From NCBI RefSeq assembly GCF_013122565.1, contig NZ_CP053258.1: a stretch of 64,000 nucleotides of DNA, one strand, 5' to 3'. This document shows positions 51,143 to 51,687 of the stretch, piece after piece (position 1 is the stretch's first letter; every line of letters begins with the position of its first letter). The stretch is from Escherichia coli (lineage in GTDB: Bacteria; Pseudomonadota; Gammaproteobacteria; Enterobacterales; Enterobacteriaceae). Position numbers and translations under genes: made by a program. The notes under the pieces were generated by a model. It ran no database searches. It was not told where the DNA came from and saw only the letters and a list, made by a program, of their open reading frames with translations.

Positions 51143-51687
51143 TACAACGTGTAATCACTAAGGCCGCGCAAGCGGCCTTTTTTATGCATAACCTACGAAC
51201 ATTAAGGAGTAATTGAACCACCAACTCAGGATCTCATACGAAAACCAGTATTAACCACGGATAAAATTCATAAAAAATACTGATTGTTAGTTAATTTATA
51301 TTAAGTAGCGCTAATAGATTTAATAATCCATAATCATTTAGAGGCTATTCTTAATTATTTGCGGTAATTCTTTATTCATTCCTCGGTTATTACGTCATAT
51401 TCAGAGCAATCCTGGTATTAGTGTCACCAATGTCATCTGGCGATAATCCTGAAATGTTATGAACTGTTCGAGCAAACTGCTTTTACCTACTGCGGGTTGG
51501 TGCTAGTATGAAAAAGTGAGTCCTGTCCCGCTTCCTTCCTAATTGTAATTTTTCGTAATAATGCGATGAAAACCTGCAAAGAGTGGCTTATAGTTAAGCT
51601 AACAAACGAGAGGGCAAGTCCAGGTCAGTAAGTTTTTTCCATCCCGAAAGGTGTCCGTTAGTTCAACCACTAAGAAGGGGACGCGTT

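Follow-up and report, generated by a model that had tools for sequence, protein, structure and literature searches.

The 545-bp spacer between acrB and tomB in Escherichia coli is best explained as an ordinary regulatory region made up of a terminator, AT-rich DNA of the H-NS type, one CpxR-linked sigma-70 promoter and an 87-nt leader, a reading to which we assign a probability of roughly 0.8. Positions refer to the whole 64,000-nucleotide stretch of DNA that was analysed, here called the window, and the features are listed in Table 1. In this arrangement, the first ~45 bp contain the intrinsic terminator of the acrAB transcript. The next ~350 bp, AT-rich and poorly conserved, may form an H-NS platform that damps the promoter, and they also hold a conserved site resembling an RcsAB box. 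The sole sigma-70 promoter, ATGAAA-17-TATAGT, then initiates at 51601, and the CpxR-type box lies just upstream of its -35 element, a position from which CpxR~P could activate RNA polymerase. Such an input would make production of TomB and its partner Hha, an H-NS co-repressor, respond to envelope stress. The leader provides the tomB ribosome-binding site.

Together with its partner H-NS, Hha helps to silence virulence genes and horizontally acquired genes, and TomB-Hha influences biofilm formation and persistence. The cellular amount of Hha therefore matters. The spacer itself adds little to what is already known of the tomB-hha promoter region, because the promoter, its start site, the CpxR link and the binding of H-NS have all been published. 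Our additions are the conserved RcsAB-box-like island at about -200 and the invariant CCAUCCC motif in the leader. The former, an RcsAB-type box conserved upstream, might conceivably add an Rcs input to Hha expression.

Table 1. Features of the acrB-tomB spacer and RNA elements used as search controls (window coordinates; TSS, transcription start site)
Feature	Position	Strand	Remarks
acrB intrinsic (Rho-independent) terminator	51160-51187	+	begins 18 nt past the acrB stop codon
Escherichia-only segment, ~65 bp	51190-51255		present in the window and L002-L005; missing from other genera
AT-rich core	51256-51400		29% GC; moderately conserved A/T-tract blocks at 51263-51300 and 51322-51330
Central DNA	~51330-51535		poor conservation (identity 0.2-0.5), genus-specific indels; two islands excepted
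RcsAB-box-like dyad TCAGAGCAATCCTG	51401-51414		-200 to -187 from the TSS; conserved island in poorly conserved DNA
Small island	51452-51463		window AAATGTTATGAA, consensus TAACTTAATGAA; columns 90-100% conserved, flanks unconserved and gapped
Promoter block	51540-51602		very high conservation in the 77-sequence alignment
Putative CpxR-type direct repeat GTAAT-N5-GTAAT, GTAATTTTTCGTAAT	51545-51559	+	-56 to -42 from the TSS, just upstream of the -35 element
tomB-hha sigma-70 promoter	51566-51594	+	-35 ATGAAA 51566-51571; 17-bp spacing; -10 TATAGT 51589-51594
tomB-hha 5' leader	51601-51687	+	87 nt, from the mapped TSS (A 51601)
CCAUCCC motif	51639-51645	+	mid-leader; invariant in nearly all 72 distinct leaders
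Shine-Dalgarno region GAAGGGGA	51674-51681	+	in the tomB leader
SNPs relative to K-12	51169; 51432, 51464, 51465, 51489, 51499; 51669		terminator loop; unconserved DNA; leader, respectively
sroB (ChiX), Rfam control	25216-25299	-	
naRNA4, Rfam control	30976-31053	-	
dnaX frameshift element, Rfam control	38976-39040	-	
4.5S SRP RNA, Rfam control	55844-55940	-	

Extent, composition and conservation of the spacer

The spacer runs from 51143 to 51687, between the end of the acrB ORF at 51142 and the tomB ATG at 51688. A first-pass annotation had described it as a long, AT-rich, non-coding interval with no credible ORF, and our analysis bears this out. Its GC content is 38.2%, with a minimum of 29% in the 200-nt stretch 51200-51399, compared with 53.8% for acrB and 54.4% for the entire window. 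Low GC persists past the spacer across tomB and hha (38-41%) up to ~52400. The spacer is the longest between real genes of the window, the runners-up measuring 463 and 386 bp. Bigger gaps that appear in the spacer table at 1-17 kb are artefacts, because a giant ORF on the minus strand lies there. This stop-free frame (1-17406, minus strand, GC ~60%) spans at least 5802 codons and runs off the window start; in its first 1667 aa, a BapA_N prefix domain is joined by numerous Ig-like repeats of the Big_13, Big_6, Big_3_3 and Big_9 types, and on these grounds we take it to encode a giant BapA-like repetitive adhesin. Because the adhesin ORF extends past the window edge, ORF lists give only spurious short plus-strand ORFs in that part.

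Three ORFs of at least 25 aa touch the acrB-tomB spacer, namely a 30-aa ORF with a TTG start (minus strand, 51487-51579) and two across the acrB stop/terminator, and none of the three is conserved. Mini-ORFs picked out by eye (TTG 51213, ATG 51457 and ATG 51507) lie upstream of the TSS, in DNA that is unconserved or confined to Escherichia. No small protein gene, in the sense of an ORF with a ribosome-binding site and conservation across species, was found in the spacer, and the RefSeq annotation of K-12 places nothing within it. Looking for direct or inverted repeats within the spacer, we obtained matches at chance level only.

Compared with K-12 MG1655, in which the spacer occupies NC_000913.3 480709-481253, 538 of the 545 positions are identical (98.7%), with seven SNPs and no indels; the identity of the neighbouring genes is 99.56% for acrB, 99.7% for tomB and 100% for hha. 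At least 80% of the spacer was found in one place in 5408 of 5426 complete E. coli genomes, and with a median of one place per genome it is a single-copy sequence. For comparison across genera, a TomB-based scan with one genome per species was used to select the best 80 Enterobacteriaceae loci. Of these 80, 76 have the 3' end of acrB ahead of tomB, and together with the window they gave 77 spacers for alignment with MAFFT. The spacers measure 435-559 bp (median 509) and have a GC content of 35-40%. In every Enterobacteriaceae genome among the top 80 TomB matches, acrB is followed by a low-GC islet consisting of the AT-rich spacer DNA and tomB-hha.

The segment restricted to Escherichia stands out in this alignment by a gap fraction of 0.89-0.95 across 51193-51252, where the consensus is a gap. 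We considered a small ORF, a remnant of a mobile element and a repeat as its identity and found support for none of them: the spacer is single-copy and the segment contains no conserved ORF.

An intrinsic terminator downstream of acrB

Directly after the acrB stop codon the spacer carries a GC-rich hairpin followed by a U-run, which is an intrinsic terminator. The terminator scan resolved it into an 8-bp stem, AAGGCCGC/GCGGCCTT, with six G-C pairs, a 4-nt GCAA loop and a run of six T. Folding of 51143-51195 gave -18.8 kcal/mol, compared with -9.3 +/- 2.2 kcal/mol for shuffled sequences (z = -4.25), and none of the 200 shuffles folded as well. The stem and the T-run are 88-100% conserved over the 77 sequences.

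The tomB-hha promoter and its start site

Promoter prediction, which the first-pass annotation had proposed as a check, yielded the ATGAAA-17-TATAGT element as the sole plus-strand sigma-70-like site detected in the spacer, with a score of 9/12. In the alignment the -35 hexamer, [A/G]TGAAA, is near-invariant and the -10 hexamer TATAGT is present in 77/77 sequences. Identical hexamers were reported by Shimada et al. 2014 for a 'constitutive' tomB-hha promoter of the RpoD holoenzyme, with a genomic SELEX peak in the spacer (PMC3946193); the label reflects that no protein besides RNA polymerase holoenzyme is needed for binding to the spacer in vitro.

The start site was mapped in K-12 by Kim et al. 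2012, who list a single TSS for tomB (NC_000913.2 480019(-), 53 reads) with an 87-nt UTR (PMC3415461 supplement). The upstream sequence given there, TTTCGTAATAATGCGATGAAAACCTGCAAAGAGTGGCTTATAGTTAAGCTA (ending TATAGTTAAGCTA), puts +1 on the A at window position 51601 (PMC3415461). The published TSS thus lies 7 nt past the -10 element, and both this distance and the 17-bp hexamer spacing fall within the ranges of a sigma-70 promoter with a mapped start (6-8 nt and 16-18 bp, respectively). After tomB, the next TSS on the K-12 minus strand in the same data is the one upstream of acrA, and in Klebsiella pneumoniae a start at the same conserved promoter is supported by 151 reads and gives a 97-nt UTR (Kim et al. 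2012, PMC3415461). The Cappable-seq list that we used covers the K-12 plus strand up to 1.09 Mb, i.e. the strand opposite tomB; it contains no TSS within 479663-481459 (U00096.2), hence no start in the spacer on that strand. Because this part of the Cappable-seq data represents the opposite strand, the claim of a single TSS in E. coli comes from one data set. The SMRT-Cappable-seq and Bury-Mone supplements have no entry for these genes. In Salmonella, three promoters were predicted in the 1 kb upstream of tomB, and only the tomB-proximal one drove GFP (PMC5133643).

The spacer had been expected to contain a complex promoter. This expectation was right insofar as more than one regulatory input converges on the promoter: the CpxR-type box together with the RegulonDB listing, the H-NS SELEX site, a reported PdhR effect and the candidate RcsAB box. 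The mapped promoter has one TSS in K-12 (Kim et al. 2012). The available maps, made without envelope stress, essentially show a single promoter just upstream of tomB and no further transcripts, which is the outcome that the first-pass annotation had named as refuting its suggestion. Given the conditions under which the maps were made, an upstream start used only under stress would have been missed.

Starts were also recorded within tomB. Kim et al. 2012 list two more K-12 minus-strand TSSs, 16 and 115 nt upstream of hha (PMC3415461), from which it follows that hha may also be transcribed alone, from inside tomB (window 51842-52100). The promoter scan found TTCGCA-18-TATAAT inside tomB at 51859-51888, and the Cappable-seq list has two antisense TSSs inside tomB, at U00096.2 479579 and 479663.

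A CpxR-type box next to the -35 element

The consensus for CpxR, reportedly defined by De Wulf and colleagues in 2002, is GTAAA-N5-GTAAA. The direct repeat upstream of the -35 element deviates from it once per half-site and, judged by its sequence, is a candidate tandem CpxR box. In the form TTGTAATTTTTCGT[A/G]AT it is nearly invariant over the 77 sequences. The pattern GTAAW-N5-GTRAW has two matches in the 64-kb window, one of which is this box. The other, GTAAAAGTCCGTAAA, equals the consensus perfectly and lies at 21556-21570 on the minus strand, in the divergent spacer upstream of an 834-aa ORF (21661-24165) that is presumed, on size and map position alone, to be copA.

In RegulonDB, CpxR is given as a regulator of both tomB and hha; tomB also belongs to the CpxR iModulon, yet it is absent from the direct targets by CpxR ChIP (PMC7657598). 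For ymoBA of Yersinia pseudotuberculosis, EMSA showed binding of CpxR~P to a 200-bp promoter fragment that contains a predicted CpxR motif, and the promoter is more active with Cpx switched on (PMC13353760). The E. coli box is predicted to bind CpxR. An inhibitor of LolCDE induces tomB 6- to 11-fold under a stress that switches on Cpx, Rcs and RpoS (PMC5105897); this induction fits CpxR alone as well as it fits CpxR plus RcsB.

PdhR is cited as a direct regulator of the locus in a citation of Ogasawara 2007. The sole published PdhR 'box' for the locus, AAcgGaatcgACCAgcT (8/14), sits inside acrB at 50672-50688 and hence outside the spacer.

AT-rich DNA upstream of the promoter

The DNA between the terminator and the promoter block contains the AT-rich core, where conservation reaches 0.5-0.7 within 51263-51302. 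Genomic SELEX located an H-NS site in the acrB-tomB spacer, at the resolution of the whole spacer (PMC3946193). Taken together with the base composition, this suggests that the AT-rich core is where H-NS would bind or nucleate, and through which it would act on the promoter. The high-affinity H-NS motif TCGATAAATT has one match with two mismatches in the spacer; it overlaps the CpxR-type box and is uninformative.

IS1 occurs in this spacer in natural E. coli isolates at two or more sites, with target duplications of 9 bp at 51302-51310 and 10 bp at 51522-51531. Carriers include L083 (NZ_CP037903.1) and L082 (NZ_CP109924.1), and four among the top matches have IS1 in the spacer. One of the insertions severs the promoter from the AT-rich upstream DNA, with only 14 bp left between it and the CpxR-type box.

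A rival reading is that nothing in the ~350 bp preceding the CpxR box is functional: this DNA would be a neutral leftover of an AT-rich sequence acquired long ago, whose only effect is to keep two transcription units apart. Low conservation with genus-specific insertions and deletions is what such DNA would display, the IS1 insertions at two sites in natural isolates imply that interruption is tolerated, and reporter activity in Salmonella needed the proximal fragment only (PMC5133643). Against this, spacer length is held to 435-559 bp in the 77 sequences, genomic SELEX reports an H-NS site here (PMC3946193), and short islands at 51280-51290, 51401-51414 and 51452-51463 are 90-100% conserved amid unconserved DNA. 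The retention of length and of several islands across genera hints at more function than has been assigned. On balance we regard functionless DNA as a serious possibility with rather low odds, and favour the reading given at the outset.

The window holds a second AT-rich spacer, at 18835-19171 (337 bp, 31.8% GC), between two ORFs on the minus strand. An RcsAB-like match with three mismatches, TAAGAATAATCCAC, lies in it at 19023.

A conserved island resembling the RcsAB box

The island at 51401-51414 is a dyad that reads TAAGAATATTCCTA or TAGGAATATTCCTA in most other genera and there equals the published RcsAB box, whose consensus is the 14-bp operator TaAGaatatTCcta (PMC4325325). The copy in the window, and in Escherichia generally, is degenerate: 5 of its 14 positions are mismatched, and T1, A3, G4, T10 and C11 are kept. 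The pattern TNRGAN4TCYNR was matched at the orthologous place in 72/77 spacers. When up to two mismatches to TAAGAATATTCCTA were allowed, 53 of the 76 other spacers matched at the orthologous site, giving 53 matches in 38 kb of spacer versus 3 in 360 kb of flanking DNA, a ~165-fold higher density. The searched literature contains neither a link between RcsB and tomB nor an earlier description of this island.

We consider it unlikely that RcsB acts at the TAAGAATATTCCTA-type box about 200 bp upstream of the TSS, by itself or together with RcsA or a different partner, to relieve H-NS silencing or to fire an upstream promoter under stress only. If this were true, both envelope-stress pathways, Rcs and Cpx, would together determine the level of Hha across the Enterobacteriaceae. 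That the RcsAB-type box functions in this particular window is similarly doubtful; it is the sole new lead from the spacer and a testable hypothesis.

A more specific and less probable proposal is a second, stress-inducible promoter that depends on RcsB (with a possible partner) via 51401-51414 and makes a leader of ~180-240 nt under envelope stress only. Its attraction lies in the dyad, which is kept in nearly all spacers, strongly enriched over the flanks and identical in consensus to the published RcsAB box. In addition, Yersinia ymoBA has a second, more distal TSS (PMC13353760), the stress that induces tomB also switches on Rcs (PMC5105897), and -10-like sequences, GATAAT at 51442-51447 and TGcTAGTAT at 51501-51509, follow the box in the window. 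However, these candidate -10 elements fall in unconserved DNA, and comparison of the spacers found no sigma-70 promoter with consistent -35/-10 geometry relative to the box. The E. coli and Klebsiella maps, made without envelope stress, contain no such TSS (PMC3415461), the Escherichia box has the mismatches described above, and no paper in the searched literature connects RcsB with tomB. We hold this second promoter to be improbable and retain the single promoter at 51566-51594.

The leader and the search for structured RNA

An untranslated leader had been anticipated in the spacer. There is one, and it measures 87 nt rather than 545. It contains no ATG. In the other genomes its length, counted from the conserved -10 element, is 81-101 nt, and its identity to the window is 0.5-0.8. 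The leader of the window folds with no excess energy over shuffled sequences (z = -0.38). RNAalifold on the 72 leaders predicted four pairs (UCCC:GGGG, between CCAUCCC and the G-run of the Shine-Dalgarno region) with no compensatory changes and an energy of -2.4 kcal/mol. A role of CCAUCCC as an anti-Shine-Dalgarno element was examined and rejected: the pairing has P > 0.5 in 23/64 leaders and P = 0 in Escherichia, and there is no covariation. As covariation and excess folding energy are lacking and the pairing is inconsistent, we claim no structured element in the leader.

A small RNA had also been suggested for this region, with a covariance-model search against Rfam as a way to find it. We ran this search and obtained no family in the spacer. 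At gathering score nothing was found in the spacer in a scan of the whole window, in which sroB (ChiX), naRNA4, the dnaX frameshift element and 4.5S SRP RNA were recovered as positive controls, all on the minus strand. At permissive E-values, no family reached E < 1 in 50900-52500; the best matches scored 15-19 bits, versus thresholds of 35-50, with E of 1.8-5.6. The weak matches in the spacer (Trp_leader, isrD, isrK and CRISPR-DR28; E 1.8-3.2) all fall on the acrB terminator hairpin. Nothing relevant was found in the searched literature on sRNA, Hfq or RIL-seq links to tomB. The suggestion of a small RNA is thus not borne out by Rfam, by the opposite strand, which has no TSS here in the Cappable-seq list, or by 51300-51540, which is poorly conserved.

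A transcript covering most of the 545 bp, whether a long structured leader (riboswitch-like or an attenuator) or an independent small RNA, would suit the unusual and conserved length of the spacer and the good conservation of the transcribed 87 nt with its invariant CCAUCCC, but is very hard to reconcile with the TSS at 51601, the Rfam and opposite-strand results, the identity of 0.2-0.5 and genus-specific indels over 51300-51540, the leader z-score with four invariant pairs devoid of covariation, and upstream Salmonella fragments that have no promoter activity (PMC5133643). We accordingly keep to a regulatory region that is transcribed over its last 87 nt.

Comparison with known systems

The orthologous operon in Yersinia is ymoB-ymoA. 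Its predicted CpxR motif, 56 bp upstream of TSS2 (PMC13353760), occupies the same position relative to the proximal TSS as the E. coli box. The two systems differ in their starts: ymoBA is transcribed from two sites, -188 and -106 relative to the ymoB ATG (PMC13353760), whereas E. coli and Klebsiella have one each, at -87 and -97.

The tomB-hha (ybaJ-hha) region of K-12 (RegulonDB/EcoCyc; Kim et al. 2012) is the same locus as the one described here, with no essential difference. The CpxR-type box, the -35 and -10 elements and the TSS are all free of SNPs between K-12 and the window, and the two share the hexamers, the 87-nt UTR and the listed regulation by CpxR.

A wider parallel is offered by AT-rich promoters that are silenced by H-NS and relieved by a response regulator, as with BglJ-RcsB at leuO and bgl. 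The tomB-hha spacer resembles such BglJ-RcsB-type loci in its AT-rich upstream DNA, its H-NS SELEX site, its conserved CpxR-type and RcsAB-like boxes and its weak -35 element. Anti-silencing at tomB-hha would be hypothetical, and here RNA polymerase holoenzyme by itself binds the spacer in vitro.
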